64,000 nt of DNA from an uncultured Solirubrobacterales bacterium (GCA_963807385.1 CAWEBQ010000003.1:718426-782425), one strand, 5' to 3'; positions 44,360-59,860 are shown, numbered from the stretch's first letter. The notes: a model not told the origin generated them from the sequence alone. Made by a program: numbers and translations.

Positions 44360-44381
44360 GCCGACCGCCGGGAGCACGGCT

Positions 44382-45011
44382 TTGGCGGTCCTCGCCGAGT
44401 TCGACCGCCAGCTCGCCACGCTGCTGGAGCGCGGCTACGCCGGCGCGGCGGGCCTCGACGAGGCAGGCTTTTTGGCCCGGCTGGAGCCACTTCGCGCGCC
44501 GGCCGCCTCCCTGGCCACCGAGGCCGACGCCGAGGCCGGGCGCTTCGGCTTCGTGCTCGTGCCGAGTCGGCCCCTGGTGCCGGCGGCGGCCGGGATCGGA
44601 CTCGTTGAGCGCCGGGGCAAGGCCGGATTCCTCGCGATGCTCGACGCACAGGACCTTGACCGGTTCGGCCCGATCGACGGCGTGAGCGAGCCCGACGCGC
44701 CGGCCTACCTGCTCGCCGACGTCTCGAGCGGCCGCGAGAGCCTGAACGTCACCCCCGACGCAGCCGTCGCGGCCCAACTGGAGGCGGGGCGCACGCCCCT
44801 AACTGTCGAGGAGGGCGTCGCGCTGGCCACCCAGTTCCCCGAGGCCGTCGCCACCAACGGCGGTTTCTCGCTGGCCGGCTCGCGCTGCGGCGACCGGCGC
44901 GTGGTCGCGCTCTGGATCAGCGGGGGGGCGCCGAAGATGGGCTGGTGCTGGGCCGGCAACCCGCACACCTGGCTCGGTACCGCCTCGTGCCGAGGACGCA
45001 TCGCCGCCTAA
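44382..45011 (+). CDS. Conserved-looking hypothetical protein
   Basis: 209 aa with a TTG start. Third positions are GC-rich, and it is tightly packed between purC and a sulfotransferase. The C-terminal GWCWAGNPHTWLG looks like a conserved block, but I cannot name a family. Confidence 0.55.
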   Translation: MAVLAEFDRQLATLLERGYAGAAGLDEAGFLARLEPLRAPAASLATEADAEAGRFGFVLVPSRPLVPAAAGIGLVERRGKAGFLAMLDAQDLDRFGPIDGVSEPDAPAYLLADVSSGRESLNVTPDAAVAAQLEAGRTPLTVEEGVALATQFPEAVATNGGFSLAGSRCGDRRVVALWISGGAPKMGWCWAGNPHTWLGTASCRGRIAA

Positions 45012-45021
45012 GCTCAGCGCC

Positions 45022-45957
45022 GTGAACCTGTTCGTCCAGGGGATGCGCCGATCGGGCACGACGATCCTCTACGACGCCCTGCTCGAGGATCGCGAGCTGC
45101 GCTCGTTCTACGAGCCCCTGCGCGAGCAGAAGGTCTCGGTCGGCGGCGGCAGCGGCGCGCGCACCGGGGATGCGTTCGGCGAGACCGGTGCGCTGCGCGA
45201 GGCGTTCCGCGCCGATCGGTACCCAAAGCTCGACATCTCCGAGTTCAACTGGGGCGGGCCACGGAAGCCCCCGCTCGAGGTGGAGCCCGGGCTGCCGGAG
45301 CACGCGATGGAGTGGCTGCGCCACCTGCTGGGCACAGCGCCCGCGGTTGCGATCAAGGAGACGCGCTTCTACTCGAAGGTCCCGGAGCTTGTGAAGCTCG
45401 ACGCCGATGCAGCGCTCGTCCACGTCGTGCGGGACCCCCGCGCAGTGGCGGCCTCGATCGTGCTCGGGCGAGGGCGGCGCCAGGCCGAGAGGCTGCCCGA
45501 CGCCGACGCCTTCTTCGCCGACCGCTCGGAGCGCAAGCTCTGGTCGTGCCGCCCGATCTCGCGGCGGCTGATCCGCAAGGGACTCGCCTCTGGCGCCGAT
45601 GCCGCCTTCCTCGGGGATCCGTCGAACGTCCTGCGCGTGCTGCTGGTATGGAAGCTGACCTTCGAGCGCACGTTCGCCGAGGGTCGGCGGCTCTTCGGCG
45701 AGCGCTACCGCCTGGTGCGCAACGAGGACCTGCGAGGTGATCCCGCCGCGGCGCTCGGCTCCGTCTACGGAATCCTCGGCCGCGAGGTGCCCGCGGAGGT
45801 GGCGGCGTGGGCCGCCGCCAACGTACGCGAGCCCGAGCCCGTCTACGCCGCGGGCGACCCGCGCTGGGCCGAGGAGCTGCGGCGGGCCGGCATCTCGGAC
45901 GGGGTGCTGGCCGACGCGGGGTATTCCGCGGACCCGGCGGGTACGCTGGGCGCGTGA
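45022..45957 (+). CDS. Divergent sulfotransferase-family protein
   Basis: The GTG start gives MNLFVQGMRRSGTTILYDAL (5'-PSB). It also has AIKETRFY...LVHVVRDPRAVAASI (3'-PB-like). The stop overlaps the purS start (GTGA). Confidence 0.72.
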   Translation: MNLFVQGMRRSGTTILYDALLEDRELRSFYEPLREQKVSVGGGSGARTGDAFGETGALREAFRADRYPKLDISEFNWGGPRKPPLEVEPGLPEHAMEWLRHLLGTAPAVAIKETRFYSKVPELVKLDADAALVHVVRDPRAVAASIVLGRGRRQAERLPDADAFFADRSERKLWSCRPISRRLIRKGLASGADAAFLGDPSNVLRVLLVWKLTFERTFAEGRRLFGERYRLVRNEDLRGDPAAALGSVYGILGREVPAEVAAWAAANVREPEPVYAAGDPRWAEELRRAGISDGVLADAGYSADPAGTLGA

Positions 45958-46214
45958 AGGCAACGGTCCTGATCCGGCCCAAGGAGGGCATCCTCGACCC
46001 GCAGGGCAAGGCGGTCGAGCGCGCCCTGCCGGCGCTCGGGTTCTCGGGCATCTCCGGGGTGCGCGTCGGGCGCATGGTGGAGCTCGAGGTCGAGGACGCC
46101 GACGACCTGCCCTCCCTCTGCGAGAAGCTCCTCGCGAACCCGCTGATCGAGGACTATGAAGTACTGCCTGATGCCTCCTCCGCTTCGCGTCCGGGGGCAT
46201 CAGGGTCCGAGTGA
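45954..46214 (+). CDS. purS: FGAM synthase subunit PurS
   Basis: The GTG at 45954 gives VKATVLIRPKEGILDPQGKAVERALPALGF..V..VRVGR..ELE. Confidence 0.88.
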   Translation: MKATVLIRPKEGILDPQGKAVERALPALGFSGISGVRVGRMVELEVEDADDLPSLCEKLLANPLIEDYEVLPDASSASRPGASGSE

Positions 46215-46879
46215 CATTCGGGGTCCTTCAGTTCCCCGGCTCCTGCGACGAGCGCGATGCGCTTGCGGCCTGTGAGCGCGCCGGTGAGGCGCGGATGGTC
46301 TGGCACGAGGACACCGACCTGTCCGGTATCGATGCCGTCGTCGTGCCCGGCGGCTTCTCCTACGGCGACTACCTGCGGGCCGGGGCGATCGCACGCTTCT
46401 CGCCGGCGATGGGCGCCGTCGCCGGGTTCGCCGCCGCAGGCGGGCCGGTGCTCGGGATCTGCAACGGCTTCCAGGTTCTGTGCGAGGCGGGCCTGCTTCC
46501 CGGCGCGCTGCTGCCGAACGAGAGCGTCCGGTTCCTCTGCCGCCAGGTCGATCTGGTGGTCGAGAACGCGGACACTGCCTTTACTCGGGAGTGCTCGGTC
46601 GGCCAAACCCTCTCGATCCCCGTCAAGCACATGTCGGGGCGCTATTTCGCCCCGGACGAGCAGCTCGACGCGATGCAGGCGAGTGGCCAGGTGGTCCTGC
46701 GCTACGCCACCGGCCAGAACCCGAACGGCTCGGTTCGTGATGTGGCCGGCGTGATCAACGAGGCGGGCAACGTCATGGGCCTCATGCCCCACCCCGAGCA
46801 CGCGGTCGACGAGCTCGCGGGCTCGGCCGACGGGCTCGCGCTGTTCCGGTCCATGGCCGCCGTGCCCGCCGCGGCATAG
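46211..46879 (+). CDS. purQ: FGAM synthase glutaminase subunit PurQ
   Basis: Contains FGVLQFPGSCDERD, VVPGGFSYGDYLR, GICNGFQVL and MPHPE. Confidence 0.95.
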   Translation: MTFGVLQFPGSCDERDALAACERAGEARMVWHEDTDLSGIDAVVVPGGFSYGDYLRAGAIARFSPAMGAVAGFAAAGGPVLGICNGFQVLCEAGLLPGALLPNESVRFLCRQVDLVVENADTAFTRECSVGQTLSIPVKHMSGRYFAPDEQLDAMQASGQVVLRYATGQNPNGSVRDVAGVINEAGNVMGLMPHPEHAVDELAGSADGLALFRSMAAVPAAA

Positions 46880-47683
46880 ATGGCCGAGGGCACGGGGCGC
46901 CCCCGGCAGCGCTACCTGCTCCCGATCCCTACCCCGGAAGCGCCCCCGGGGCAGGTGACCGGCCCGCCGGACCTGATCGGGATCGGGGCCCAGCGCGCCG
47001 GGACGACCTGGTGGTGGCGCGGCGCGGTCCGCTCTCACCCCGGCTTCGCCCGCGACGTAAAGCCCGGCAAGGAGCTCCACTTCTTCGACCGCTTCTGGGA
47101 CGGGCGCGAGGTGCCCTCCGACCTCGCCGAGCAGTACGCGCTCCAGTTCCCCAGGCCCGAGGGAAAGCTCACGGGCGAGTGGACGCCCCGCTACATGCAC
47201 GACTACTGGACCCTGCCGCTGCTCCGCGCCGCTGCGCCGGAGGCGCGGATCCTGGTGATGCTGCGCGACCCCGTCGCCCGCTACCGCTCGGGCATCGCAC
47301 GCGAGCTGGGCATCGCCGGGAAGGCGGGCGAACCCCTGGAGATCGCGATCGTCGGCGACGCCGTGTACCGCAGCCTCTACAGCTCCCAGCTCCGGCGCCT
47401 CTTCGAGCTGTACGAGCGCGAGCGGGTGTTGGTCCTCCAGTACGAGCGCTGCGAGGCCGACCCCCTGGGGGAGATGCGACGCACCCACGAGTTCCTGGGT
47501 CTCGAGCCGCTCACCGAGATCCCGGGGGACCTCGACCGGCAGGTGGGGACCGCCCGCGAGAAGGTTCGCCTGGCTCCACTTTTGGAGGCGGAGTTGGCCG
47601 GTCGCCTCACCGAGGACGCACACAGGACCAGCGATCTGTGCCCTGAGATTGACCTCTCGCTGTGGCCCAGCGTCGGCGGATAG
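46880..47683 (+). CDS. Sulfotransfer_1-type (heparan-sulfate-ST-like) carbohydrate sulfotransferase
   Basis: The ATG directly abuts the purQ stop. Blocks are IGIGAQRAGTTWW, KELHFFD, EWTPRY and ILVMLRDPVARYRSG, which align by eye with the GxxKxGT / HFFD / TPxY / LRDPxxRxxS blocks of animal HS 3-O/N-sulfotransferases. Confidence 0.8.
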   Translation: MAEGTGRPRQRYLLPIPTPEAPPGQVTGPPDLIGIGAQRAGTTWWWRGAVRSHPGFARDVKPGKELHFFDRFWDGREVPSDLAEQYALQFPRPEGKLTGEWTPRYMHDYWTLPLLRAAAPEARILVMLRDPVARYRSGIARELGIAGKAGEPLEIAIVGDAVYRSLYSSQLRRLFELYERERVLVLQYERCEADPLGEMRRTHEFLGLEPLTEIPGDLDRQVGTAREKVRLAPLLEAELAGRLTEDAHRTSDLCPEIDLSLWPSVGG

Positions 47684-47726
47684 CCGCTCTGCGCGCCCGC
47701 CTGCCCGACTGTGAATTTTCGCAAGT

Positions 47727-47745
47727 GACCACCGCATAGGTGGTC
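47727..47745 (+). terminator. Small hairpin in the only sizeable low-GC gap of the sulfotransferase region
   Basis: GACCACC-gcata-GGTGGTC (7-bp stem). No U-tract. It could instead be a regulatory site for the operon starting at 47806. Confidence 0.25.
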
Positions 47746-47805
47746 TGACGCGAATACTCGAGGGTGAGACGCTTGGGACGAGAAGCCCTACCTACACTCC
47801 GCGCC

Positions 47806-48900
47806 ATGAAGCTGGCCATGGCCATGAAGGTCCGCGACGAGGCGGACATCATCGAGTTGAACCTGCGCTACCACGCTGCGCAGGGCGTTGATGAGTTCAT
47901 CGTCACCGACAACGGCTCGACCGACGGCACCCTCGAGATACTCGAGCGGTGGCGCGACGAGGGGCGCCTGCGGCTGATCAGCGAGCCCAGCGCCGACGCC
48001 TTCCGCGACCAGGGGCACTGGTGGGTCACCCGCATGGGCCGGATGGGGGCCGAGGTGGGCGCCGACTGGGTCCTCCACGCCGACGCCGACGAGTTCTGGT
48101 GGCCAGCAGGGGGCGATCTGCGGCAGGGCTTCGAGTCGGTCCCCGAGGCCTACGGCGCCGTGATCGGCCCACGCAGCGAGTTCGTGGCACGGCCTGACGG
48201 GCCGGGCCCCTGGTGGGAACGCCTCACGGTTCGCGAGACCCGGACGGCGCTGCGCCCGAAGATCGCCCACCGGCCAGAGCCCGACCTGCGACTGCGCCGC
48301 GGGGCCCACGACGTGGACTTCGACGCCGACGAGCTGGCCCGAGCCGGCCGGCCTGTGCTCCGCGGCATTCGGGAGCGGATGCGCCACGACGACGGGCGCC
48401 TCGTCTACGCACCGGTCTTTCCCGCCCGCGTGCTCCACGTGCCGCTGCGGAGCTTCGAGCAGTACAAGCGGCGGGTAGAGGTGATGCTCTCCGGCGGCTT
48501 CCACGACAACACGCGCGAGAAGCTCCAGCAGGCCCATGACAGCGGGCGCCTGGAGGAGATGTACGCCGACCTCGCGGTGGACGACGCGACCGCGCAGGCG
48601 GGCGTGGCCGACGGCACCCTCGTGGTCGACGAGCGTCTGAAGCGAGTCCTTCCCAGCTACGCCGACGCCGACGGCGTGCCGGTGGCCGCGCTCGACCCCG
48701 CAGACGTCGAAGCGGAGCGCACGGATGTTGCCTTCGAGGGAATGCGCTCGCTGACCCGCTCCCAGCAGGTTCTGATGCGTCAGCGCGAGACGCTGAGGAG
48801 GCGCCTGGACCGCAAGGACGCGAAGCTCGCCGCCAGGGAGACCGATCGCGGCGACAGCCGGCTTCGGAACGTCGCGCGGATGCTGAACCGGCCTAGATGA
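47806..48900 (+). CDS. GT2-like (Glyco_tranf_2_4-like) glycosyltransferase
   Basis: The ATG at 47806 gives MKLAMAMKVRDEADIIELNLRYHAAQGVDEFIVTDNGSTDGTLEIL...HADADEFWWP. It is paralogous to the N-terminal half of 25309..27111. Confidence 0.8.
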   Translation: MKLAMAMKVRDEADIIELNLRYHAAQGVDEFIVTDNGSTDGTLEILERWRDEGRLRLISEPSADAFRDQGHWWVTRMGRMGAEVGADWVLHADADEFWWPAGGDLRQGFESVPEAYGAVIGPRSEFVARPDGPGPWWERLTVRETRTALRPKIAHRPEPDLRLRRGAHDVDFDADELARAGRPVLRGIRERMRHDDGRLVYAPVFPARVLHVPLRSFEQYKRRVEVMLSGGFHDNTREKLQQAHDSGRLEEMYADLAVDDATAQAGVADGTLVVDERLKRVLPSYADADGVPVAALDPADVEAERTDVAFEGMRSLTRSQQVLMRQRETLRRRLDRKDAKLAARETDRGDSRLRNVARMLNRPR

Positions 48901-49832
48901 TCATCGCGCGTCGCTTCAGGCCCCGGCGCCGGGCGCCGGGACTCCCCGCGCCCTTCGTCGTCGGCGTCGGCCGCTCCGGCACAACGCTCCTGCGGCTGAT
49001 GCTCGACGCCCACCCCGACCTGGCGATGCCGCCGGAGACCGGATTCGCGCCGAGCGTGATCCGCGCAGGCCGCAACGGCCCGACACCCGCGAGCATGATG
49101 GAGCTGCTGCGCGAGCAGCGGAGCTGGGGCGACCATCACGTCGATGATGCCCAGCTCGAGCGCCGCCTCCGCGCCGCCAGAAGGCTCGACGGGACATCGG
49201 CCCTGCGCGCCTTCTACGGCCTCTACGCCGAGCGCCAGGGCAAACCGCGCTGGGGCGACAAGACCCCCGGGTACGTGAAGAAGATGCCGATGATCGAGCG
49301 CGCGCTCCCGGAGGCGCGTTTCATCCACGTGATCCGCGACGGACGAGACGTCTCGCTCTCCCGCGGGAGGCGCCGCCTCGCCGAGGGCGACGCGCCGGGG
49401 CCCGGGCGGGTCGCCGAGATGTGGCGCAACCGGATCCTGCGCGCCCGCGAGGACGGTGAGCGCCTCCGTCACTACCTGGAGATCCGCTACGAGGACCTGG
49501 TGACGGACACCGAACCCACCCTTCGTCGGGTCGCGGACCTGATCGAGCTCCCCTGGGACGGCGCGATGCTGACCTACTACGAGCGCGCGCCCGAGCGCCT
49601 GGCCGAGATGGCGCGGGACCTGCCCGCGACAGGCAAGAAGCTCTCGCGCTCGGGAGACGAGCGAATGGCTGCCCACGCCCTCGCGGCCGAGCCGCCAAAG
49701 GCCGACAGAATCGCGACGTGGCGCGAGCGCATGGGCGAGGAGGACCTCACGGCCTTCGAGGACGTGGCCGGGGACCTGCTCGCCGAACTCGGATACGAGG
49801 TCGGGAGCGGTCAGACTTCGGGCGTCGCATGA
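48897..49832 (+). CDS. TPST-like sulfotransferase
   Basis: ATGA overlap. Contains PFVVGVGRSGTTLLRLMLDAHPDLAMPPETGF, KPRWGDKTPGY, VIRDGRDVSLS and LEIRYEDLV. Confidence 0.9.
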   Translation: MIIARRFRPRRRAPGLPAPFVVGVGRSGTTLLRLMLDAHPDLAMPPETGFAPSVIRAGRNGPTPASMMELLREQRSWGDHHVDDAQLERRLRAARRLDGTSALRAFYGLYAERQGKPRWGDKTPGYVKKMPMIERALPEARFIHVIRDGRDVSLSRGRRRLAEGDAPGPGRVAEMWRNRILRAREDGERLRHYLEIRYEDLVTDTEPTLRRVADLIELPWDGAMLTYYERAPERLAEMARDLPATGKKLSRSGDERMAAHALAAEPPKADRIATWRERMGEEDLTAFEDVAGDLLAELGYEVGSGQTSGVA

Positions 49833-51709
49833 GCGCTGGCGCCGCGCAGAGCCCCGCCCCCTTTGTGGTCGGCATGAACCGCTCGGGCACGACCCTGCTG
49901 CGGATGATGCTCGATGCCCATCCCGAGCTCGTGATTCCGCCCGAGACGCACTTCATCCCAGACCTGATCAAGGCGACCAGGAAACGGGGCGCGAAGCCCG
50001 CTGACGCGCTGGCGGCGATGAGGTCCCACCGCGAATGGGAGGACTTCGCCTTCACCGACGCCGAGGCGCTGGCCTGGCTGGAGGGGCTGCCCCGCCTGGA
50101 GCCCGGCCCCGCCGTGCGCGCCTTCTACAAGGCCTACGCAGCCCGCGCGGGCAAGCCGCGATGGGGAGATAAGACGCCCCGCTACGTGCTGAAGATGCCG
50201 CGGCTCCAGGCGGCCCTGCCGGAGGCGCGGTTCGTCCACGTGATCCGCGACGGACGGGACGTCGCGCTCTCGGTACTCGACCGGACCGTGAAAGACCTCG
50301 ACGCGCCCGAGGTCGCCCGGCGCTGGAGCCGCAAGATCGAGCGGGCGCGCGCCGACGCACCTGCCCTAGCGCACTACCTCGAGGTGCGCTACGAGGAGCT
50401 CGTGTCCAACCCGAGGCCGGTGCTCGAGCGGATCTGCGAGTTCCTCGACCTGCCCTTCGATGAGGCCATGCTCGACTACCACGAGCGCTCCGGCGAGCGC
50501 CTGGAGGAGATGCGCCGCGGGCTGCCGGGGGCCGGCAACTCCGCGGAGCTCTCGGTCGAGCGACGGATGGAGACCCACCGCCGCACCACCGCGCCGCCCG
50601 ACGCCTCGAGGGCGACGCGCTGGCGCGAGGAGATGAGCGCGGAGGATCGGTCCGGCTTCGAACGCGTCGCCGGCGGAACGCTTGGCCGCCTCGGCTACAG
50701 ACCCTCCAACACCCCAAGCGTCGCGTTTTTGATCTGCGTGGAGGAGGGCCAGCTCGAGCAACAGGGGATCCTGTTCGCGCGCTCGCTGCGGCGCTTCGGC
50801 GGGCGCTTCGCGGGCTGCGCCGTCCACGCCTACGCGCCCCGCAAGGGACGCAACCCCTCGGCAGGGACCACCGCGGCGCTGGAGTCGGAGGGCGTCACGG
50901 TCCACACCGAGGTCCTGAACGCCGACCACGACTTCTACCCCTTTGCGAACAAGATCTACGCGGCCGCCGCGGCGGAGCGCGACCTCGACGAGGACGTGGT
51001 CGTCTTCACCGACTCCGACACGGTGATCATGAGCTCCCCGGACGCGCTCGAGCTGGCCGAGGACACGGACGTGGCGGCGGCGCCGGCGTTCCACGTCAAC
51101 AAGGCGAGCACGGGGCCCGGCCACCGGATGGAGGGCTACTGGGACCGGGTCTGGGAGCTGGCCGGCGTGCCCGGCGAGCCGCCCTGGGTCGAGACGTCGG
51201 AGCGCAAGAGGCCGGTCCGCTGCTACTTCAACGCGGGGATCCTGGCGGCGAGGCGGTCCTCCGGCTACTGCTCGGAGTGGCTGGAGCTGTGGAGGATGCT
51301 GCTGGCGGAGCAGCACTTCCCCGATGGCAAGATGATGGTCACCGACCAGGTGGCGATCTCGGCCGCGGTCGCCCGCCGGCCAGACCGGTTCGTTGCTTTC
51401 GAGCGCACCTACAACTACAACGTCCACCGCCGCCCCTACTACTCGGGCGGCATGGACACGGCCGACCTGCCGGACCTGGTCCACCTGCATTACCACCAGT
51501 GGTTCAACCGCCGGAACGTCCTTCGCGACCTGCGCCCGCCGCTCAGCCCGGACACCGAGCAGTACCTGTGGCTCGACTCGGAGCTGCCCCTCGAGCCCGC
51601 GATCCGCGCCCCGCTCCCCAGGCCCGGCCGCAAGCGCTCGCGCTGGCGCAACCGGGGCCTGGGCAAGCTGCGCTCGCCGTTGAGGGAGATCGGGAGGTCG
51701 GACAAGTGA
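49829..51709 (+). CDS. Bifunctional fusion: N-terminal TPST-like sulfotransferase plus C-terminal GT-A-like DxD domain
   Basis: ATGA overlap. The first roughly 295 aa contain PFVVGMNRSGTTLLRMMLDAHPELVIPPETHFIP...KPRWGDKTPRY...VIRDGRDVALS. From about nt 50711 it reads VAFLICVEEGQLEQQGILFARSLRRFGG...VVFTDSDTVI...YFNAGILAAR, which is paralogous to 42489..43421. Confidence 0.85.
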   Translation: MSAGAAQSPAPFVVGMNRSGTTLLRMMLDAHPELVIPPETHFIPDLIKATRKRGAKPADALAAMRSHREWEDFAFTDAEALAWLEGLPRLEPGPAVRAFYKAYAARAGKPRWGDKTPRYVLKMPRLQAALPEARFVHVIRDGRDVALSVLDRTVKDLDAPEVARRWSRKIERARADAPALAHYLEVRYEELVSNPRPVLERICEFLDLPFDEAMLDYHERSGERLEEMRRGLPGAGNSAELSVERRMETHRRTTAPPDASRATRWREEMSAEDRSGFERVAGGTLGRLGYRPSNTPSVAFLICVEEGQLEQQGILFARSLRRFGGRFAGCAVHAYAPRKGRNPSAGTTAALESEGVTVHTEVLNADHDFYPFANKIYAAAAAERDLDEDVVVFTDSDTVIMSSPDALELAEDTDVAAAPAFHVNKASTGPGHRMEGYWDRVWELAGVPGEPPWVETSERKRPVRCYFNAGILAARRSSGYCSEWLELWRMLLAEQHFPDGKMMVTDQVAISAAVARRPDRFVAFERTYNYNVHRRPYYSGGMDTADLPDLVHLHYHQWFNRRNVLRDLRPPLSPDTEQYLWLDSELPLEPAIRAPLPRPGRKRSRWRNRGLGKLRSPLREIGRSDK

Positions 51710-52605
51710 GCGCCGAATCCGTAGCGCCGGTGCCGTTCATCGTCGGGGTGCCGCGCTCCGGGACGACGATGCTGCGGCTGATGCTCGACGCGCACCCCGA
51801 CCTGGCGATCCCGCCCGAGACCTATTTCGTCACCAACCTGATCGAGGCCGGGTACGGCGGCGCCGGGCCCGAGCAGCTCGCCAACGTGCTCGTCAGCCAC
51901 CGGCGCTGGGGCGATCTGGGAATCGAGGAAGCCGAGCTTCGCCGCCGCCTGAACGAGATCGGGCGGCCTAGCGGCGGGGACGCGGCGAGGGTGGCGTTCG
52001 AGCTCTACGCCCACGGCCGCGGCAAGCCGCGCTGGGGCGACAAGACGCCGGCGTACCTCACCAACATCGCGGAGATCCACGAGGCGCTGCCCGAGGCCCG
52101 CTTCATCCACCTGATCCGCGACGGGCGCGACGTCGCGCTCTCCATCCTGCGGATGCCGGAGGCCGACCGGCCGATGCGCCGGCCCGACTCCGTCGGGCTC
52201 GTCGCGAGGCGCTGGAGCCGGCGGATCAAGCGCGCCCGCGCCCAGGCCGATGGCCTCCCCCACTACCTCGAGCTCCGCTACGAGGACCTGGTGCGCGATC
52301 CCGGGCCCGCCTTGCGCCAAGCGTGCGACCTGATCGAGCTGCCGTTCACCGAGTCGATGCTGGACTTTCACGCCGGGGCCTCGGAGCGCCTGGCCGAGAT
52401 CGACCGCGACCTCGCGGCGCGCGACGATCTACCGGCCCAGTCCGCTGAGGGCCGGACCGCGCCGCACGCCCTGGCGTCGCAGCCGCCAAGCGAAGGACGG
52501 ATCGGCGTCTGGCGCGAGGAGATGACCGCCGAGCAGCTGGCCGAGTTCGAGGACAAGGGCGGCGAGATGCTGCGGTCGCTCGGCTACGACGGGGGCGGGG
52601 GATGA
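51706..52605 (+). CDS. TPST-like sulfotransferase
   Basis: GTGA overlap. Contains PFIVGVPRSGTTMLRLMLDAHPDLAIPPETYF, KPRWGDKTPAY and LIRDGRDVALS. Confidence 0.9.
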   Translation: MSAESVAPVPFIVGVPRSGTTMLRLMLDAHPDLAIPPETYFVTNLIEAGYGGAGPEQLANVLVSHRRWGDLGIEEAELRRRLNEIGRPSGGDAARVAFELYAHGRGKPRWGDKTPAYLTNIAEIHEALPEARFIHLIRDGRDVALSILRMPEADRPMRRPDSVGLVARRWSRRIKRARAQADGLPHYLELRYEDLVRDPGPALRQACDLIELPFTESMLDFHAGASERLAEIDRDLAARDDLPAQSAEGRTAPHALASQPPSEGRIGVWREEMTAEQLAEFEDKGGEMLRSLGYDGGGG

Positions 52606-53549
52606 GCCCGTTGCTGCGACGCCGCTCCACGCCCGGTGGCCCTCCCGCCCCGTTCGTGGTCGCGAGCCCACGGTCGGGCACCACGCTCCTGCGGATGATG
52701 CTCGACGCCCATCCCGAGATGGCGGTTCCCTTCGAGACCCATTTCGTACCCGAGTTGATCGGCGCCGTTGAGGCGGGCGGCGGTGCGGCCTCGGCGCTTC
52801 AGGTCGTTACCGGGCACCGTCGATGGGGCGATTTCGGGCTCGACGACGAGGCCTTGGCGGAACGGCTGCGCTCGCACGGCGAGCTCACCCCCGGCGACGC
52901 CGTGCGCAGCTTCTACACCCTCTACGCGGAATCGCAGGGGAAGCCCCGCTGGGGCGACAAGACCCCGGAGTACGTGGAGTTCATGCGGCCGATCGCGGGA
53001 GCGCTCGGGGAGGCGCGCTTCGTCCACGTCATCCGCGACGGGCGCGACGTGGCGATGTCGCGGATCCGCTGGCGCCAGAAGCGCAGCGGCAAGACACCGC
53101 CCGTGCGTCGGATGGCCCGGCGCTGGAAGGAGGCGATCACCGTCGCCCGCGAGCAGGCGAGGAAGGTGGGTCACTACGTCGAGGTTCGCTACGAGGACCT
53201 CGTGGCCGAGCCGGAGGCAACGCTGGGGAGGATCTGCGACTTCGCGGAACTGGACTACGACTCGGCGATGCTGAGCTACCACGAGCGAGCCTCCGAACGG
53301 ATGGCGGAGATCGACCGGACGCTCCCGGGCACAAGCGACCGGGTTGAGCTGGACGCTTCGCAGCGCCTCGCCAAGCACGAGATGGCGACCAAGCCGCCGG
53401 AGCGCGACCGGATCCTGGCCTGGCGCAACGACATGAGCGAGGCCGACCGGCGGGAGTTCGAGGCCATCGCCGGGAAGCTCCTGCGGGACCTCGACTACCC
53501 CGTGGGCGACGGTGCGGTGGCCGCGGCCGCGGTGGTAGCGGAGGGCTGA
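52602..53549 (+). CDS. TPST-like sulfotransferase
   Basis: ATGA overlap. Contains PFVVASPRSGTTLLRMMLDAHPEMAVPFETHF, KPRWGDKTPEY and VIRDGRDVAMS. Confidence 0.9.
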   Translation: MSPLLRRRSTPGGPPAPFVVASPRSGTTLLRMMLDAHPEMAVPFETHFVPELIGAVEAGGGAASALQVVTGHRRWGDFGLDDEALAERLRSHGELTPGDAVRSFYTLYAESQGKPRWGDKTPEYVEFMRPIAGALGEARFVHVIRDGRDVAMSRIRWRQKRSGKTPPVRRMARRWKEAITVAREQARKVGHYVEVRYEDLVAEPEATLGRICDFAELDYDSAMLSYHERASERMAEIDRTLPGTSDRVELDASQRLAKHEMATKPPERDRILAWRNDMSEADRREFEAIAGKLLRDLDYPVGDGAVAAAAVVAEG

Positions 53550-54472
53550 TGGCCGCGCACCCCGCCCCCGCGCCGTTCATCGTCGCCAACCCCGGGTCGG
53601 GCACGACCCTGCTGCGGATGATGCTTGACGCTCATCCGGACCTGGCGATCCCGCCGGAGACCCACTTCGTCCCCGAGGTGATCGATCGGGCCCGCGAGAT
53701 CCGCAGGGCCAGCGACCGCAAGCCCACCGGCGAGGAGCTAGCCGACGCGATCGCCGCGGGACGCCGCTGGGAGGACTTCCACCTCGACCGCGGCGAGCTG
53801 GCGAAGCGCATGTCGGGACGCAGGGGCGAGGCCGGGGCGCGGGCGGCGATACGCGCCTTCTACGAGATGTACGCGGAGGCTCAGGGCAAGGCGCGCTGGG
53901 GCGACAAGACGCCCGACTACCTGCTGTCAATCCGGCGGATCGGCAAGACGCTGCCCGAGGCCCGATTCGTCCACCTGATCCGCGACGGTCGCGACGTCGC
54001 CACCTCCCGGCGGCGCTGGCGTGAGCGGGCCGGCGGACGGGAGCGCTCGGTCACGGCCTGGGCCGGACAGTGGCAGCGATGGATCGAAACCGCTCGCAAG
54101 CAGTCGGGCGACGTCGCGCACTACCTGGAGGTCCGCTACGAGGACCTCGTCACGGACACGGAGCCGGCGCTGCGCCGGGTCTGCGAGTTCGCGGAGCTCG
54201 ACTTCCGCCCAGAGATGCTCGATTACCACGAGCGCGCCGCCGGACGGCTTCGCGAGCTTGACCGCTCGCTGCCCGCCGCCGAGGGCAAGGGCGCGCGCGA
54301 GGCCTCTCACCGTCAGGCCAAGCACTCGCTGACGGCCGCGCCGCCGCAGGAGGCGAAGGTGCAGGCGTGGCGCCACGACATGAGCGAGGCCGACCGGGTT
54401 GCGTTCGAGGCGGAGGCCGGAGAGCTGCTCGCCGAGCTCGGCTACCCGGTGGGGGAGGCGGTCTCCTCGTGA
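53549..54472 (+). CDS. TPST-like sulfotransferase
   Basis: TGATG overlap. Contains PFIVANPGSGTTLLRMMLDAHPDLAIPPETHF, KARWGDKTPDY and LIRDGRDVATS. The 5'-PSB motif has G in place of R (PGSGTT). Confidence 0.88.
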   Translation: MAAHPAPAPFIVANPGSGTTLLRMMLDAHPDLAIPPETHFVPEVIDRAREIRRASDRKPTGEELADAIAAGRRWEDFHLDRGELAKRMSGRRGEAGARAAIRAFYEMYAEAQGKARWGDKTPDYLLSIRRIGKTLPEARFVHLIRDGRDVATSRRRWRERAGGRERSVTAWAGQWQRWIETARKQSGDVAHYLEVRYEDLVTDTEPALRRVCEFAELDFRPEMLDYHERAAGRLRELDRSLPAAEGKGAREASHRQAKHSLTAAPPQEAKVQAWRHDMSEADRVAFEAEAGELLAELGYPVGEAVSS

Positions 54473-55566
54473 GGGTCGGCGTGGTGACGAAGTGGTTCAA
54501 CCGGGGGCAGCCGGTCGTCGGACGCTACCTCCGCTCGGCGCTCGATGAGCTGGGCCACGAGACTTTCGTCCTGGCGAGACCGAGGCGCGAGGACGGCCCG
54601 ATGCCGGGCGCCCTCTCCAATGACGACGTTTGGGATCAGCCCGGCGTCACCGAGGGCTCCGCCTACGACATCCCGATGCGGGAGTACGAGGCATGGGCCG
54701 CGGAAAACGGGATCGAGGTCGTCTTCTGCGACCAGAACTACCAGTTCGACGAGGTCCGGAGGCTGCGCGAGGGGGGGCTGCGGACCGTGGGCCGATTCGT
54801 CTGGGAGCACTTCTCCGAGCAGCATGTCGATGGCGCGGGGTCCGCCTACGACGTGGTGTACTCGTTCACCCGGTCCGAGCAGGCCCGCTACGCCGAGCTG
54901 GGGATCGAGAGCCCCTACGTCACGTGGGGCTGCCACCCGGAGCTGGTGGCGGTCGGCGATGCGAGGCGACCCGCCGGCGACGGCCTGGTCCGAGCGGTCT
55001 TCCCCGGTGGGTTCCTCGGCAACCGCAAGCCGGTCGAAACGGTGCTGGAGGCCTTCGCGCGAACCGTGGATGAACGACTGCGGCTGCTGGTGAAGACCCA
55101 GGTTGAGCGCGAGCAGCTGAAGCCGGTCCTCGCCGCGGCAGAGGCCGACCCCAGGATCGAGGTGCTGGTGGAAAACGAGGCGACAGCCGATCACCTGCAG
55201 CGCTTCGCCGCGAACGACTTCTGCGTCGCGCCCGCCCGCTGGGAGGGCCTGGGGCTGCCGCTTTATGAGTCGATGGCGTTCGGGATGCCGGTGATCACGA
55301 ACGACTACCCGCCGCTGAACGAGGCGGTCACCGACGACGTGAACGGCCTGCTGGTCTCCGGCTCCCCCACCGGCAAGACCACGCGCTCGGGCATCCCGTG
55401 GCAGACGCCGGATGTGCGCGAGCTGGCCGCAGCTATCGAGCGCCTTGCCGACGATGAGCTTCGCGAACGGCTGAGCGCCGGGCAGATCGCGCTCCGCGAC
55501 GGCGCCCGGGCCTGGAGCCACACCGTGTCGGGGATCGGCGCGCTGGCCGAGGGGCGAGAGCCGTGA
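54469..55566 (+). CDS. GT4-family (GT-B) glycosyltransferase, paralog B
   Basis: The GTG at 54469 (GTGA overlap) gives VRVGVVTKWFNRGQPVVGRYLRSALDELGHETFVLARP...PARWEGLGLPLYESMAFGMPVITNDYPPLNEAVTDDVNGLLV. It is collinear with 32570..33655. Confidence 0.88.
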   Translation: MRVGVVTKWFNRGQPVVGRYLRSALDELGHETFVLARPRREDGPMPGALSNDDVWDQPGVTEGSAYDIPMREYEAWAAENGIEVVFCDQNYQFDEVRRLREGGLRTVGRFVWEHFSEQHVDGAGSAYDVVYSFTRSEQARYAELGIESPYVTWGCHPELVAVGDARRPAGDGLVRAVFPGGFLGNRKPVETVLEAFARTVDERLRLLVKTQVEREQLKPVLAAAEADPRIEVLVENEATADHLQRFAANDFCVAPARWEGLGLPLYESMAFGMPVITNDYPPLNEAVTDDVNGLLVSGSPTGKTTRSGIPWQTPDVRELAAAIERLADDELRERLSAGQIALRDGARAWSHTVSGIGALAEGREP

Positions 55567-56537
55567 GCGAGCGGCTAGGCCCGCTCGCCATCGCGGGACG
55601 CAAGCTCAGCCTGATGAAGCGCCGCAGGCGCCTGCGGCGCGCCGCGGCTCGGCTCCACGGCGGCACGCCCGATCCGCCGGCCCCGTTCATCGGCGGGGCG
55701 ACGCGATCGGGAACCACGCTGCTTCGGCTGATGCTGGACGCCCATCCGGATCTGGCAATCCCATCCGAGACGCATTTCGTGCCGGCCATGATCTCGCGCT
55801 GCGTCGAGGGGCCGGTTGAGGCGGGCGAGCTGGCGGCGATCGCAACAAGCCATCCGCGCTGGGGCGACTTCGGTCTCGAGGCCGCCGAGTACGTGGCGCG
55901 GGTGCAGGCCCTGGAGCCACTGACCGCCGCCGAGGCCGTGCGCGAGTTCTACCGCCTCTACGCCGACGGCCAAGGGAAGGTCCGGTGGGGCGACAAGACC
56001 CCTGGCTACATCCGCAAGACCCGGCCGATCCAACGGGTGCTGCCGGAGGCCCGGTTCATCCACATGATCCGCGACGGGCGTGACGTCGCCCTGTCGGTGA
56101 TGCCACTCAACTTCGGCCCCTCGACCGTCACCGGAGCCGCCGAGCTTTGGGTCAAGCGGGTGAGCCTGGGCCGAAAGCAGGCCAAGGCCGCCGACCACTA
56201 CGCCGAGGTCTTCTACGAGGAGCTGATCGAGCAGACGGAGCCGGCGCTGCGGCAGGTGTGCGATTACCTCGACCTGCCCTTCCACCGCGCCATGCTGGAC
56301 TACCACCAGCGGGCGGGAGAACGCCTGGCCGAGAAGGCACGCGACCTCAAAAAGGAGGACGGGCGCACCCAGCCCGCCGAGGCGCGGATCACGAGTCACG
56401 CCCTCGCCTCGGAGGCGCCGCGGGCCGACCGCATCGGCCGCTGGCGCCGCGAGATGACCGAGGCGGACGTGGCGGAGTACGAGCGGGTCGCCGGGGAGCT
56501 CCTCGCCGAGCTCGGCTACGAGCTGGGCTCGGGCTGA
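55563..56537 (+). CDS. TPST-like sulfotransferase (last gene of the operon)
   Basis: GTGA overlap. Contains PFIGGATRSGTTLLRLMLDAHPDLAIPSETHF, KVRWGDKTPGY and MIRDGRDVALS. Confidence 0.9.
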   Translation: MSERLGPLAIAGRKLSLMKRRRRLRRAAARLHGGTPDPPAPFIGGATRSGTTLLRLMLDAHPDLAIPSETHFVPAMISRCVEGPVEAGELAAIATSHPRWGDFGLEAAEYVARVQALEPLTAAEAVREFYRLYADGQGKVRWGDKTPGYIRKTRPIQRVLPEARFIHMIRDGRDVALSVMPLNFGPSTVTGAAELWVKRVSLGRKQAKAADHYAEVFYEELIEQTEPALRQVCDYLDLPFHRAMLDYHQRAGERLAEKARDLKKEDGRTQPAEARITSHALASEAPRADRIGRWRREMTEADVAEYERVAGELLAELGYELGSG

Positions 56538-56568: not shown

Positions 56569-56985
56569 CTAGTTGTCCTCCCCGCGAAGGCTTTCTGGGA
56601 TGCCAGCCGCCTCGAGTGCCTCTTCCCTCGAGTTGAACGCCTCCTGACGCACAACCTTCCCTTCGCGGAGTTGGTACGCCCAGTTGACGGCCCCCTCGAC
56701 CGCCGCCCCGCTGCCACGGCCCTTTGCCCGGTGGACGGCGACCACGACCACGCGGTCGTCGAACTCCGCCAACTCCTCGATGTCGAAGTAGGCGCCCCGA
56801 TCGAAGGTGCGAAACCAGTCGCCGAACCACTCACCGACCGCGTCCCGACCGCGGAACGTGCCCGCGCGGATACCCGCCGTGACCACCAGCACGACGCCCT
56901 CCGCGTAGTGGCCCAGCGCCCGCTCCCAGTCCCGCTCGTTTGCGGCCGCGTACTGGTCCTCGACGATCTCCGCGTTGGTCAGCAT
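56569..56985 (-). CDS. SnoaL/NTF2-like small protein
   Basis: 138 aa: ...AYFDIEELAEFDDRVVVVAVHRAKGRGSGAAVEGAVNWAYQLREGKVV.... Same pattern as 28996..29388. Confidence 0.6.
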   Translation of the reverse strand: MLTNAEIVEDQYAAANERDWERALGHYAEGVVLVVTAGIRAGTFRGRDAVGEWFGDWFRTFDRGAYFDIEELAEFDDRVVVVAVHRAKGRGSGAAVEGAVNWAYQLREGKVVRQEAFNSREEALEAAGIPESLRGEDN

Positions 56986-57698: not shown

Positions 57699-58274
57699 CT
57701 AGCGCAGCCAGCTCTCCAGAATGCGGACGAGGACAGCGACGGCGTCGCGACCCACGATCCCACGCTCACGCAGCGCGACCAATGCGTCGTAGTCGGTCAG
57801 CGCGCGAACCACCGAGATCTGGCGGTCCTCGAGCCCCAGCGGGTCGAGCGCGACGGTGGCAATTGCGTCGAGACGCTCCTCGATCTCCTCGTGGGCCTCC
57901 TGAAGGGGGGCCAGCAGGACTCGCTCGCGGCGGACCGCCCGCAGCACATCGGCGCCGCGCTCGTACAGGTCGAACAGCTCGCCGACCAGGCGGCGGAGGC
58001 GCTCCCGGCGAGAGCGCGCGCCCCGGAAGCGCTTCGCGATCTCCTCGTCCGACGGCAGCGATAGCCGGAGGAAGCTCAATTCGCCGCAGGCAGGAAGCAG
58101 CTCGTCAAGCGTCGGGAAGTGCCGGAAGACGGTCGCCGGCGCGACGTCGGCTCGCTCCGCGATCTCCTCCCAGCTCGTCGAGGATCTTCTGCGAGTTGTG
58201 ATCGAGGTCGTCCCGCCGCCGGGCCTGGAGGCCCCGCTCCACGTCCACCATGGCGAGGACGAGGGCTTCCTCAT
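57699..58274 (-). CDS. TetR-family regulator, possibly 5'-truncated or degraded
   Basis: HTH TSWEEIAERADVAPATVFRHFPTLDELL followed by a plausible ligand domain. The 33 aa upstream of the HTH are non-canonical (MRKPSSSPWWTWSGASRPGGGTTSITTRRRSS) and lie antisense to the cupin gene. Confidence 0.55.
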   Translation of the reverse strand: MRKPSSSPWWTWSGASRPGGGTTSITTRRRSSTSWEEIAERADVAPATVFRHFPTLDELLPACGELSFLRLSLPSDEEIAKRFRGARSRRERLRRLVGELFDLYERGADVLRAVRRERVLLAPLQEAHEEIEERLDAIATVALDPLGLEDRQISVVRALTDYDALVALRERGIVGRDAVAVLVRILESWLR

Positions 58275-58551
58275 CCTCGAGGGCGACGCGGTGCTCTACG
58301 TGGGCGATCAGCGCATCGAGGCCACAGCGGGCCAGTTCGCGCTCGGGCCCCGCGAGGTGCCACACCGCTACAAGGTGGGTTCCGCCGGCGCCCGCATGTT
58401 GTGGGTCCTGACGCCGGCCGGTTTCGAGGACCTCGTGGAGGCCCTGAGCGTTCCCGCCGAGGCGATGACGGTGCCGCCCCCGGAGATCGCCCCACCGGAG
58501 AACGCGACCGAGATCGCACTGCGATACGGCAACGAGCTCCTCGAGCAGTAG
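58198..58551 (+). CDS. Cupin-domain protein, possibly 5'-truncated
   Basis: The GTG start gives VIEVVPPPGLEAPLHVHHGEDEGFLILEGDAVLYVGD...PREVPHRY (cupin motifs 1 and 2). The usual N-terminal strands before motif 1 are missing. Confidence 0.6.
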   Translation: MIEVVPPPGLEAPLHVHHGEDEGFLILEGDAVLYVGDQRIEATAGQFALGPREVPHRYKVGSAGARMLWVLTPAGFEDLVEALSVPAEAMTVPPPEIAPPENATEIALRYGNELLEQ

Positions 58552-58618
58552 GGGCAGGACCAGCCCGGCACCGGTCGGTGCCCTCTCCGGCTGCGAGCCG
58601 CAGGGTGAAACCGCCCGG

Positions 58619-59860
58619 CTAGCCCTTCTCCTTCTCGTAGCCGCCCGCGTCGCAGCGCTTCCCCTGGGCCCGCGCCACGCCGCGCTGGTCCGTCGCCGGG
58701 TAGTCAGGCGGATCGGCGCACATCGGCTTCGTCTCCTTCGGCCCGGCGTCGATCGCGTCGCTGCCGTTGAGAAGAGCGTGGGTCTGGGTCGGGCCGCCGT
58801 TGGCGGCGAGCCGTCCCAGCTTGGCGTCGGCGTTCATCAGGTCGGTCGCGTCGGTCAAGCCCCCGCAGCTGCCGTCGCTGGCGACGTTGGAGCCCTCTGA
58901 GCCCTGGTTGTCCCCCCCGCAGTTCCCGTCCCCGCGTGGCTGCGCGAGCACAGTGGCAAAGAGCACCGAGGTGCCGCCGCCGAGGTTCGCCCCACCGACC
59001 TTTGCCCTGTTGTTCGCGATCGTCGCATAGCGGAATCGCGCGTTGGTGGCGCTGGAGCCGTAGTAGTAGCCACCACCGCCGCTGAACATGCCCGAGCCCG
59101 TGGCCCGGTTGCCGCTGATCGTGCTGTTGCGAATCACCGCGACCCCCTGGTCGTGGACGCCACCGCCCGTGTCCGCGACGTTGTTGCTGATGGTGCTCCG
59201 CTCGATCGTGGAGGTGATTGTCGTGCTGGACAGCGACAACCCGCCTCCGATCGAGCCGGCGGCCTTGTTCCTCCTGACCGTCGACTTGGTGAGGCTCAGG
59301 TTCGCATCGCCCCCGATGACCTTTATGCCGCCCCCCCCGCAACAGCTTGCTTGGTTGTTGCGGATCACCGAGGACTTGATATTGAGGATGTCCGAGGCTC
59401 GGATCCCGCCGCCACCGGCGTTCGACTCAGATCCGTTGGCGACGGTGAGACGCCGCAGGTAGAGGGGTCCACCGGCGTCGAAGACGCGGTCGTCGAGCGC
59501 CTTCGCGTCGATCACCGCCTTGCCGGGCGAGCGCCCCTTGACCGTGAGCCCGTCGGTGTCGAGCACGTCGAGGTCACCCGTGGCGCCCGCGTCCTCGTTG
59601 TTGCCCTCGATCTTCAGCTTGTAGGGCTTGCTCTGCGCCGGCAGAACGATCTTGTCGGGGCCGACCGCGTTGTTCGCATCGAGTACGGCCTCGCGCAGGC
59701 TGCAGGCCGACTGAGTGCAGCCGTTGGGTGCCGGGTCGCCGCGCGTAGTAACCGTCAACGGGGCCGCAACCGACGCGGAGGCCCATCCGAGCGATGCAAC
59801 GCCGACAACGACGAGCGCACCCACATGGCGGCCACCTGGGCACGATCGGACTCGACTCAT
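58619..59860 (-). CDS. Secreted right-handed beta-helix repeat protein (choice-of-anchor-Q-like)
   Basis: The track ORF extends to 59977. The Met at 59860 gives signal MSRVRSCPGGRHVGALVVVGVASLGWASASVAAP. After that come CSLREAVLDANN, repeated ...I.NS.I.GN.A...GGG... turns, and a Cys-rich C-terminus. Confidence 0.75.
   Translation of the reverse strand: MSRVRSCPGGRHVGALVVVGVASLGWASASVAAPLTVTTRGDPAPNGCTQSACSLREAVLDANNAVGPDKIVLPAQSKPYKLKIEGNNEDAGATGDLDVLDTDGLTVKGRSPGKAVIDAKALDDRVFDAGGPLYLRRLTVANGSESNAGGGGIRASDILNIKSSVIRNNQASCCGGGGIKVIGGDANLSLTKSTVRRNKAAGSIGGGLSLSSTTITSTIERSTISNNVADTGGGVHDQGVAVIRNSTISGNRATGSGMFSGGGGYYYGSSATNARFRYATIANNRAKVGGANLGGGTSVLFATVLAQPRGDGNCGGDNQGSEGSNVASDGSCGGLTDATDLMNADAKLGRLAANGGPTQTHALLNGSDAIDAGPKETKPMCADPPDYPATDQRGVARAQGKRCDAGGYEKEKG

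Follow-up and report, generated by a model that had tools for sequence, protein, structure and literature searches.

The stretch of DNA analysed here, called the window in the following, comprises 64,000 nucleotides from an uncultured soil actinobacterium of the Solirubrobacterales (GCA_963807385.1, CAWEBQ010000003.1:718426-782425), and all positions are counted from its first letter. The genes of interest form an operon of eight at 47806..56537, each encoding a sulfotransferase (ST), a glycosyltransferase (GT) or a fusion of the two. This operon is the densest part of a larger ST/GT island, which lies among purine genes. Most of its STs resemble tyrosylprotein sulfotransferases (TPSTs) and would use 3'-phosphoadenosine-5'-phosphosulfate (PAPS). 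The features of the operon are given below with Pfam E-values.

47806..48900, plus strand: GT2_4-family GT, first gene of the operon; PF13704 1e-17, PF00535 5.5e-5; HADADE as DxD motif, GT-A fold
48897..49832, plus strand: ST1, TPST-like putative PAPS sulfotransferase; PF13469 2e-35; ATGA overlap with the preceding gene
49829..51709, plus strand: fusion of ST2 with a GT8-like GT-A domain, 626 aa; PF13469 1.9e-37 on aa 12-212
~49829..50770 and ~50774..51709, plus strand: the ST half and the GT half of this fusion
51706..52605, plus strand: ST3; PF13469 2e-39; GTG start
52602..53549, plus strand: ST4; PF13469 2e-33; ATGA overlap
53549..54472, plus strand: ST5, with Gly in place of the 5'-phosphosulfate-binding (5'-PSB) Arg (NPGSGTT); PF13469 1.2e-35
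54469..55566, plus strand: GT4 glycosyltransferase, GT-B fold; PF00534 5.7e-17, PF13692 3e-16; EX7E motif EGLGLPLYE; GTG start
55563..56537, plus strand: ST6, final gene of the operon; PF13469 1.8e-32; GTGA overlap
47684..47805, no strand: spacer of 122 nt with 63% GC, the sole gap above 25 nt within the same-strand block 43454..56537

An earlier note on this DNA, made from the sequence alone, had described eight genes at these coordinates, and they were recovered as intact plus-strand open reading frames (ORFs), all in frame, with one terminal stop each and a GC content at third codon positions (GC3) of 0.90-0.94 in a genome of 71% GC. The overlaps that it had placed at every junction were reproduced to the exact position, with ATGA at 48897, 49829 and 52602, and GTGA at 51706, 54469 and 55563. 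These six overlaps measure 4 nt, and that between ST4 and ST5 (TGATG, 53549) measures 1 nt. The operon-like coupling claimed in the note is real. Start/stop overlaps were found in 10 of 28 other same-strand neighbour pairs versus seven of seven in the operon, an outcome expected by chance at about 0.36^7, or ~1e-3, at the background rate. The style of overlap is itself ordinary for this genome, and the run of seven is above background. Proteins identical to ST1 (48897), ST3 (51706, GTG) and the operon GT4 (54469, GTG) were present on one contig in an independent public gene call, so that an independent gene caller had picked the same starts, and the ATG of the GT2_4 protein at 47806 agrees with the N-terminus of its paralog at 25309..27111. 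The lower-GC gap described before the operon was present (47684..47805, 63% GC versus ~71% across the region), as was the convergent gene after it, a SnoaL-like gene at 56569..56985 on the minus strand. A scan with the fusion protein, using one genome per species, returned 564 related stretches, of which the best 80 make up 74 related loci (L001 on); in one of these, L003, the equivalent of the spacer measured ~31 nt in longest-ORF coordinates. The RNA fold of the spacer was no better than that of shuffles (z -0.57), a scan for promoter and terminator consensus over 43-58 kb gave nothing over shuffle expectation, and an Rfam scan of the whole window found no family at gathering score.

The family assignments of the earlier note were borne out by Pfam: six of the proteins matched PF13469 (1.8e-32 to 2e-39), one PF13704 and one PF00534/PF13692. 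Against a PF13469 cut-off of 27 bits, all six operon STs scored well above it with 114-137 bits, and among the further STs of the island, listed below, ST0 reached 147, the fusion at 25309 reached 130, and STu1, STu2 and STu3 reached 42-52 bits. The blocks (R/G)SGTT..LR.MLDAHP, P.ET.F, RWGDKTP and IRDGRDV..S, which had been claimed as conserved, were found intact in the alignments of all six operon STs. The 5'-phosphosulfate loop and the 3'-phosphate motif RDGR..S occurred in all eight TPST-like paralogs, with Gly at the position of the basic residue in ST5. The nearest solved relatives by sequence (phmmer) were TPSTs, with 8w5z at 1.2e-16, TPST1 and TPST2, over a range of 1.2e-16 to 2.2e-11, and the STs of the polyketide synthases (PKSs) OLS (4gox) and CurM (4gbm) were also among the best PDB matches. 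Alignment to TPST gave four matching columns, namely the RSGTT loop, the Glu of PPET, the Lys of GDKTP and RDGR..S; in TPST2 the residues are Arg78, Glu99 and Lys158, plus the 3'-phosphate-binding (3'-PB) motif. The Stf0 family (PF09037) was seen on ST4 only and below threshold (17.7 bits versus a cut-off of 22), and NCBIfam held no equivalog for any operon protein. The predicted ST fold and cofactor site are secure. As the best matches of the STs were TPSTs, PKS STs and a sub-threshold NoeE, homology gives no acceptor.

The 5'-PSB Arg was carried by 326 of 342 motif matches in the ST-bearing frames of the window and the related loci. The Gly of ST5 (NPGSGTT versus RSGTT) is kept in the ST5 orthologs of L002-L005, and the enzyme may be catalytically altered or inactive, though maintained, and may represent a pseudo-enzyme or one of altered mechanism. 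Six active STs, as the earlier note had supposed, are therefore not assured. The ST paralogs of the window were 46-57% identical to one another (ST0 versus ST1-ST6, 47-57%), and each operon ST had a reciprocal-best positional ortholog, 64-76% identical to it, in at least one of the loci L001-L003; each copy is therefore maintained. Reciprocal orthologs of ST1, ST2 and ST6 were found order-wide, those of ST6 placed after the GT4 gene, and those of ST3-ST5 were confined to the sub-lineage of the window. Conservation in the STs was centred on the PAPS motifs, and the variable segments (ST3 residues 41-100, 147-170 and 235-260) form a pattern compatible with diverged acceptor specificities. It could be argued from the missing Arg of ST5, and from the lack of reciprocal orthologs of ST3-ST5 beyond the closest relatives, that the array is a redundant and decaying set of tandem duplicates with no division of labour and several inactive copies. 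We find this very improbable, since the ORFs are intact with GC3 ~0.9 and complete motifs, and the paralogs are old (~50%) with positional orthologs at 64-76% identity, the Gly variant included.

The GTs of the operon belong to three families. The GT2_4 protein carries HADADE as its DxD motif and the GT4 protein EGLGLPLYE, the latter scoring 62 bits versus a PF00534 cut-off of 26.4; a PDB sequence search with these two proteins gave nothing useful. NCBIfam matches of the operon GT4 and of its counterpart GT4b were far below the cut-offs, with a weak likeness to BshA and MshA, and the operon GT4 gene is kept inside the ST arrays of relatives. The C-terminal half of the fusion (310 residues) had no Pfam match even at E<=5, Glyco_transf_8 included. 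Its homologs were gathered and 35 were aligned (alignment A1), and an AlphaFold2 model was obtained with a pLDDT of 91.6 and a pTM of 0.88. The top Foldseek matches of this half were XXYLT1, the catalytic domain of UGGT, WbbM, glycogenin and LgtC (E 5e-10 to 1e-8, probability 1.0, TM-score 0.43-0.63), and D104xD106 (DSD) and N177/G179 were invariant in the GT8-like alignment. According to the model, the C-terminal half is a retaining GT-A enzyme of GT8/GT24 type, with kinship at the level of the fold only. The GT-A assignment of the earlier note thus held for this half, given the confident model and the retaining GT-A matches, but its three GT folds are three families with two folds, GT2_4 and GT8-like being GT-A and GT4 being GT-B.

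Each GT family occurs twice in the window, GT2_4 at 47806 and 25309, GT4 at 54469 and 32570, and the GT8-like family at 50774 and 42489..43421, and there are two independent ST-GT fusions, ST-GT8-like (49829) and GT2_4-ST (25309). Searched against 1.84 billion proteins, a profile of the GT8-like domain retrieved 836 representative clusters at E<=1e-30. Ten long multidomain members were scanned with Pfam, and six of them carried Sulfotransfer_3, in the architectures ST-GT8-like, GT8-like-ST and GT2-ST-GT8-like; GT2 was found in three of the ten, two of these being the GT2-ST-GT8-like proteins. Repeated independent fusion of this kind, by the Rosetta-stone argument, suggests that one and the same substrate is both sulfated and glycosylated, and it is the strongest indication in the sequences that the STs and GTs share a substrate.

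The eight genes do not stand alone, and the limits set by the earlier note had to be widened on both counts. A unit that begins at 47806 disregards STu2 (46880..47683), which abuts purQ, and the same-strand block that spans purC (43454) to 56537; a unit of eight genes leaves out the additional ST, GT and AsnB-like genes at 24.4-43.4 kb. The extra STs were found with a local hidden Markov model (HMM) of the paralogs together with Pfam, and STu3, passed over by both the GC3 gene filter and the paralog HMM, by translating a seemingly empty stretch of 860 bp. In total, the 32 kb from 24.4 to 56.5 kb of the window contain 11 ST domains, all of them between 25.3 and 56.5 kb, and six GT domains. The additional genes of the island and the purine genes between them are as follows.

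24421..25383, plus strand: NAD-dependent sugar-nucleotide epimerase/dehydratase; PF01370 2.4e-59; convergent with the GT2_4-ST fusion
25309..27111, minus strand: GT2_4-ST fusion; PF13704 4.4e-13 on aa 10-99, PF13469 2.7e-37 on aa 310-519, local ST HMM 7e-95
32570..33655, plus strand: GT4b; PF00534 3.8e-18; N-terminal signature as in the operon GT4; recurs in related islands
38862..39836, plus strand: ST0, stand-alone seventh TPST-like paralog; PF13469 1.6e-42
39833..40699, plus strand: STu3, divergent ST; PF13469 1.3e-13; QKSGTS and RR..NTFS motifs; GTG start overlaps the ST0 stop (GTGA)
40696..42489, minus strand: AsnB-like enzyme, 597 aa; 1-nt overlap with the GT8-like gene 42489..43421
42489..43421, minus strand: stand-alone GT8-like paralog, 39% identical to the C-terminal half of the fusion; DSD and NAG motifs; no Pfam match
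43454..44359, plus strand: purC; SAICAR_synt 3.6e-77
44382..45011, plus strand: DUF5701 protein, between purC and STu1; Pfam 4e-59
45022..45957, plus strand: STu1, divergent ST, between purC/DUF5701 and purS; PF13469 2.2e-10
45954..46214, plus strand: purS, read from the translation
46211..46879, plus strand: purQ; GATase_5 2.9e-36
46880..47683, plus strand: STu2, divergent ST; PF13469 9.8e-12, PF00685 2.6e-9; conserved in L001-L005

The gene order starts with dnaK-grpE-dnaJ-hspR, clpB, the epimerase, the GT2_4-ST fusion (minus), an FG-GAP/ASPIC gene (minus), a SnoaL-like gene, a cyclase-AAA-TPR gene (minus) and GT4b. After GT4b come GYD, purD, purE, purB, a P450 gene (minus), ST0, STu3, the AsnB-like gene (minus) and the GT8-like gene (minus), followed by purC, DUF5701, STu1, purS, purQ, STu2, the 122-nt spacer and the operon. 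From purC (43454) to ST6 (56537) there are 14 genes on the same strand with one gap above 25 nt. The stop of STu1 overlaps the GTG start of purS (GTGA, 45954), purS and purQ share a 4-nt overlap, and the TAG of purQ abuts the ATG of STu2. The ST/GT genes are thus interleaved, and by their junctions predicted to be translationally coupled, with purC, purS and purQ. The longest ORFs of purE (35327..35887) and purB (35824..37179), both on the plus strand, overlap the preceding genes by 29 and 64 nt, and their true starts are probably internal. Recent horizontal acquisition of the island was considered and rejected, as its GC and GC3 are those of the genome background and the synteny is order-wide.

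The arrangement is not peculiar to the window. The best 80 stretches, which form the 74 related loci, were all from metagenome-assembled genomes (MAGs), mostly labelled Solirubrobacterales, Thermoleophilia or Conexibacteraceae, with a best identity of 77%, the remaining labels being Actinomycetes, Actinomycetota, "bacterium", one Acidimicrobiia and one Rubrobacter. Counted with the local ST HMM over at most ~20 kb, at least three ST-domain equivalents were present in 61 of the 74 loci and at least five in 37, with a maximum of 8.8. Where purQ was present, 38 of 45 loci had a same-strand ST or GT gene starting no more than 1.5 kb downstream of it, and in 31 of those purQ loci a same-strand purL followed, separated by more than 3 kb; in L024 and L035 Pfam showed purL-purF-purN immediately after the array. 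STu1 occurred together with purQ in 38 related loci, and the stand-alone GT8-like gene recurs beside STu2-like and ST genes. The content of the island differed between groups of loci. The closest relatives of the window, L001-L005, have ST-rich islands with the ST-GT8 fusion, L024-L052 have GT4-rich islands that also encode an O-methyltransferase and a double-domain ST-ST protein, and L060-L064 have GT2_4-rich islands. The double-domain protein, of 615 aa and with two tandem Sulfotransfer_3 domains, closes the array just before purL (L024 14870..16717; L035 14966..16813) in Conexibacteraceae-type loci, 18 of whose islands contain the O-methyltransferase, PF01596. A Wzx-like flippase adjoined the array in L035 and L037 only, i.e., in two of 74 related loci. 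Across the order, purQ and purL thus usually flank an ST/GT island whose content varies.

Taken together, it is probable that the ST/GT island assembles a multiply sulfated glycoconjugate in the cytoplasm. Three soluble GTs would build or extend a glycan on an acceptor using nucleotide sugars, with GT2_4 acting as an inverting-type GT-A enzyme, the GT8-like domain fused to ST2 as a retaining GT-A enzyme and GT4 as a retaining GT-B enzyme. Thereafter five to six soluble PAPS-dependent STs of the TPST fold would O-sulfate different hydroxyls. In each ST, RSGTT as the 5'-PSB loop would bind the phosphosulfate and the Glu of PPETHF would serve as base, and RDGRDV..S and the GDKTP Lys would keep the 3'-phosphate in place. 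Each paralog may serve a position or intermediate of its own, with synthesis coupled through the stop/start overlaps. The product, most likely undescribed so far, would probably be an oligosaccharide, a polysaccharide or the head group of a glycolipid that bears several sulfates; it would be synthesised on the cytoplasmic face, and the genes for its export would lie elsewhere in the genome. We infer from the genes that the STs use PAPS, that they sulfate a sugar, that each paralog has its own position, and where in the cell the product would be located. The content of the island is species-variable at a fixed chromosomal site, so the product is probably a lineage-variable component of the envelope or surface. 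The sugar-nucleotide epimerase/dehydratase that adjoins the GT2_4-ST fusion supports a glycoconjugate; in NCBIfam this protein matched dTDP-glucose 4,6-dehydratase and GalE under the cut-offs.

A number of findings weigh against a sulfated glycoconjugate. Among solved structures, the STs are closest to protein-tyrosine and PKS enzymes and not to carbohydrate STs, and the sole NCBIfam match of the STs, the Nod-factor sugar ST NoeE, reached 40-47 bits versus a cut-off of 500. ST5 lacks the conserved 5'-PSB Arg. Neither transmembrane segments nor signal peptides were found in any operon protein, and all appear soluble. No priming phosphoglycosyltransferase, Wzx/Wzy, co-polymerase, ABC exporter or acyltransferase was present among the Pfam-annotated ORFs of the window, and priming, export, polymerase and acyltransferase genes are unlinked in most relatives too. 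Finally, the host organism is represented only by metagenome assemblies. In the interpretation of the earlier note, the ST and GT assignments, the motifs and the coupling stood, whereas the limits of the unit, the number of folds and the glycan product did not stand as given, a small glycan sulfated at several positions being an extrapolation from genes whose export and polymerisation partners are unlinked and whose nearest solved ST relatives are non-carbohydrate enzymes. We also found no gene for PAPS synthesis and no PKS or PapA in the window.

The lack of a linked exporter, polymerase and lipid-carrier priming enzyme, with all enzymes soluble, would also suit a sulfated saccharide that stays in the cytoplasm as a compatible solute or as a reservoir of sulfur or charge and is no envelope polymer (cf. 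sulfotrehalose). A constitutive housekeeping operon would be a fitting setting for such a core metabolite, and the GT4s weakly resemble the small-acceptor GT4s BshA and MshA. These similarities are far under the family cut-offs, however, surface glycans typically have loci that stay in place and vary in content between species, two relatives have a linked Wzx gene, and one solute would not normally call for so many different STs, so that we regard a cytoplasmic solute as rather improbable.

Directly upstream of the GT2_4-ST fusion lies a gene for an FG-GAP/ASPIC protein (27143..28942, minus strand), predicted to be secreted and with an N-terminal hydrophobic segment, which recurs beside GT8-like, STu2-like and ST genes in eight relatives (incl. 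L021, L029, L044 and L051). This protein, the sole secreted one noted beside the ST and GT genes, may be modified by the enzymes or bind to them. The STs might sulfate tyrosines, in the way that RaxST sulfates a tyrosine of RaxX, and the GTs glycosylate the same protein, for which the FG-GAP/ASPIC protein would be a candidate. TPSTs are the best solved relatives of the STs (E 1e-16 to 2e-11) with the Arg, Glu, Lys and 3'-PB in common, but they resemble the PKS STs and NoeE, a carbohydrate ST, to a comparable degree. One target protein would hardly account for five to eleven paralogs, signal peptides are missing from the STs, which are cytoplasmic, and no precursor-like gene, protease or dedicated exporter was seen among the annotated ORFs, though no search aimed at short Tyr-rich ORFs was made. 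The ST-GT fusions moreover favour a glycan substrate, and modification of a protein or peptide seems to us a doubtful proposition of low probability.

Two further neighbours of the STs call for mention. The P450 gene 37227..38570 (minus strand) is divergent from ST0 and kept between purB and purC in most related loci; the pair resembles the mycobacterial cyp128-stf3 pairing of sulfomenaquinone. The AsnB-like protein, or its profile, had no Pfam or PDB sequence match. Its AlphaFold2 model (pLDDT 91.4) matched TsnB9 in Foldseek at 1e-13, followed by beta-lactam synthetase, AsnB and the carbapenam synthetase CarA; the PP-loop SGGRDS is invariant and the N-terminal Cys is absent, as it likewise is from beta-lactam synthetase-type members. 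Named members of this family were all annotated as "hypothetical protein" from Solirubrobacterales or Actinomycetota MAGs, and a paralog (P0249), 48% identical, is encoded on the same public contig.

Both neighbours would have a place if the substrate shared by STs and GTs were a lipid, a quinone or an aromatic metabolite, glycosylated by the GTs and sulfated by the STs on hydroxyls outside the sugar, for which sulfomenaquinone (Cyp128/Stf3) and sulfated glycosylated natural products are analogies. A P450 adjoins ST0 and is kept in relatives, the AsnB-like protein would be an amide-forming enzyme of natural-product type (TsnB9, beta-lactam synthetase), and SnoaL-like genes are present at 28996 and 56569. 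To these may be added the PF01596 O-methyltransferase in 18 related islands, the CurM/OLS PKS STs among the best PDB matches, the solubility of every enzyme and the unlinked glycan exporter. The window holds, however, no PKS, nonribosomal peptide synthetase or terpene scaffold synthase, the SnoaL, TetR and MMPL neighbours are not kept in relatives, the island is order-wide and inside a housekeeping operon, and the recurrent ST-GT fusions favour a glycan as the common substrate. We therefore consider aglycone tailoring unlikely. It is the repeated ST-GT fusions that place the sulfated glycoconjugate above tyrosine or aglycone sulfation.

The region downstream of the operon, 57699..62067 on the minus strand, encodes a TetR regulator, an MMPL transporter (59929..62067) and a secreted protein of beta-helix type. 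The downstream SnoaL, TetR and MMPL genes were tried as members of the system and rejected, as none is kept beside the arrays of relatives, and neither are the lipoprotein and beta-helix genes. An inositol-1-phosphate synthase, a CDP-alcohol phosphatidyltransferase and a PAP2 phosphatase stand in a row at 12109..14803 (minus strand), likely a phosphatidylinositol pathway; that phosphatidylinositol could be a lipid acceptor for the soluble GT4 enzymes, as in the synthesis of phosphatidylinositol mannosides, is a speculative analogy. An RTX-repeat protein (3012..5207, plus strand), a PIN-domain toxin (5807..6564, minus strand) with an overlapping small upstream gene, likely a toxin-antitoxin pair, and an adenylate cyclase-AAA-TPR signalling protein of 1039 aa (29385..32504, minus strand) are apparently unrelated to the island. 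PADLOC gave no defence-system model match in the window, and a weak "GT4-conflict" Pfam match was set aside on this ground.

Sulfated glycans of bacteria outside cyanobacteria are barely known, and if an abundant order of soil bacteria conserves an island of 3-9 STs per locus, this would point to unrecognised sulfated envelope or extracellular material. Organic ester-sulfate makes up a large share of soil sulfur, and the island could bear on its origin. The soluble bacterial STs and the two unannotated families, GT8-like and AsnB-like, might serve as a supply for glyco-engineering, and the embedding in the purine operon would be an unusual case of accessory genes translationally coupled to core metabolism. 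A bolder claim, which we put forward tentatively and would not yet call probable, is that Solirubrobacterales as a rule make a densely sulfated glycoconjugate, close to a glycosaminoglycan in charge density, from a species-variable island locked inside the purine operon. If so, Gram-positive bacteria would have their first described system for a polysulfated glycan. The system would also be a plausible biological source of soil ester-sulfate, and it would offer at least eight soluble, probably regiospecific carbohydrate STs for the chemoenzymatic synthesis of sulfated glycans.

The literature yielded no described locus of comparable ST density, in agreement with the earlier note, the best-described bacterial cluster of GTs and STs being xss with two STs; full-text searches on STs or sulfation in Solirubrobacter, Thermoleophilia, Conexibacter, Solirubrobacterales or the purine operon found no relevant work. 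The xss cluster for synechan in Synechocystis PCC 6803 has two STs, eight GTs and Wzx/Wzy/PCP (polysaccharide co-polymerase), and lies on a megaplasmid with a dedicated regulator (PMC8205485). Its authors regarded two STs in one polysaccharide cluster as unprecedented and stated that sulfated polysaccharide was previously unreported from other bacteria (PMC8205485). Three putative STs are given for Pontiella (PMC7356697), and the bacterial glyco-STs listed as characterised in a 2024 review are NodH, KpsS and Stf0 (PMC11625862). The window shares with xss the clustering of PAPS-type STs with several GTs and, presumably, the logic of glycan first and sulfation afterwards. It differs in the operon's ratio of six STs to three GTs, with 11 ST domains over the 32 kb of the island, in the absence of a polymerase, flippase and priming enzyme, and in that its genes are chromosomal, among purine genes and actinobacterial.

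With TPST1/2 and RaxST the STs of the window have in common the RSGTT 5'-PSB loop, the Glu base, the Lys and the RDGR..S 3'-PB motif (E 1e-16), but they are soluble cytoplasmic tandem paralogs, fused or linked to GTs, and no peptide-substrate gene was found. They are also similar to NoeE, NodH, LpsS and the mycobacterial Stf0-3 as soluble bacterial families for PAPS-dependent O-sulfation. Those enzymes act on glycolipids or oligosaccharides and occur singly or paired, and the matches of the window to them are sub-threshold (NoeE 40-47 versus 500 bits; Stf0 17.7 versus 22). Unlike the mycobacterial sulfolipid-1 (SL-1) locus, the island has no conserved partners of the pks2, papA or mmpL8 type, and MMPL is not kept beside the arrays. 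Surface-glycan loci of variable content at a fixed site are known from the O-antigen between galF and gnd and from pneumococcal cps between dexB and aliA. The island resembles them in its housekeeping flanks (purQ, purL) around GT-rich, species-variable content, but its flanks belong to one biosynthetic operon with apparent translational coupling to the island genes, STs predominate, and Wzx/Wzy and an ABC transporter are absent. The GT half of the fusion and the protein of 42489..43421 share the fold and the DxD metal site of GT8/GT24 enzymes (glycogenin, LgtC, XXYLT1, UGGT, WbbM); at 12-16% identity and with no Pfam GT8 match, they form a separate family that is often fused to STs. The enzyme families are thus known, and the density of STs, their ratio to GTs, the recurrent ST-GT fusions, the missing export genes, the order-wide conservation and the lodging among purine genes appear to be new.

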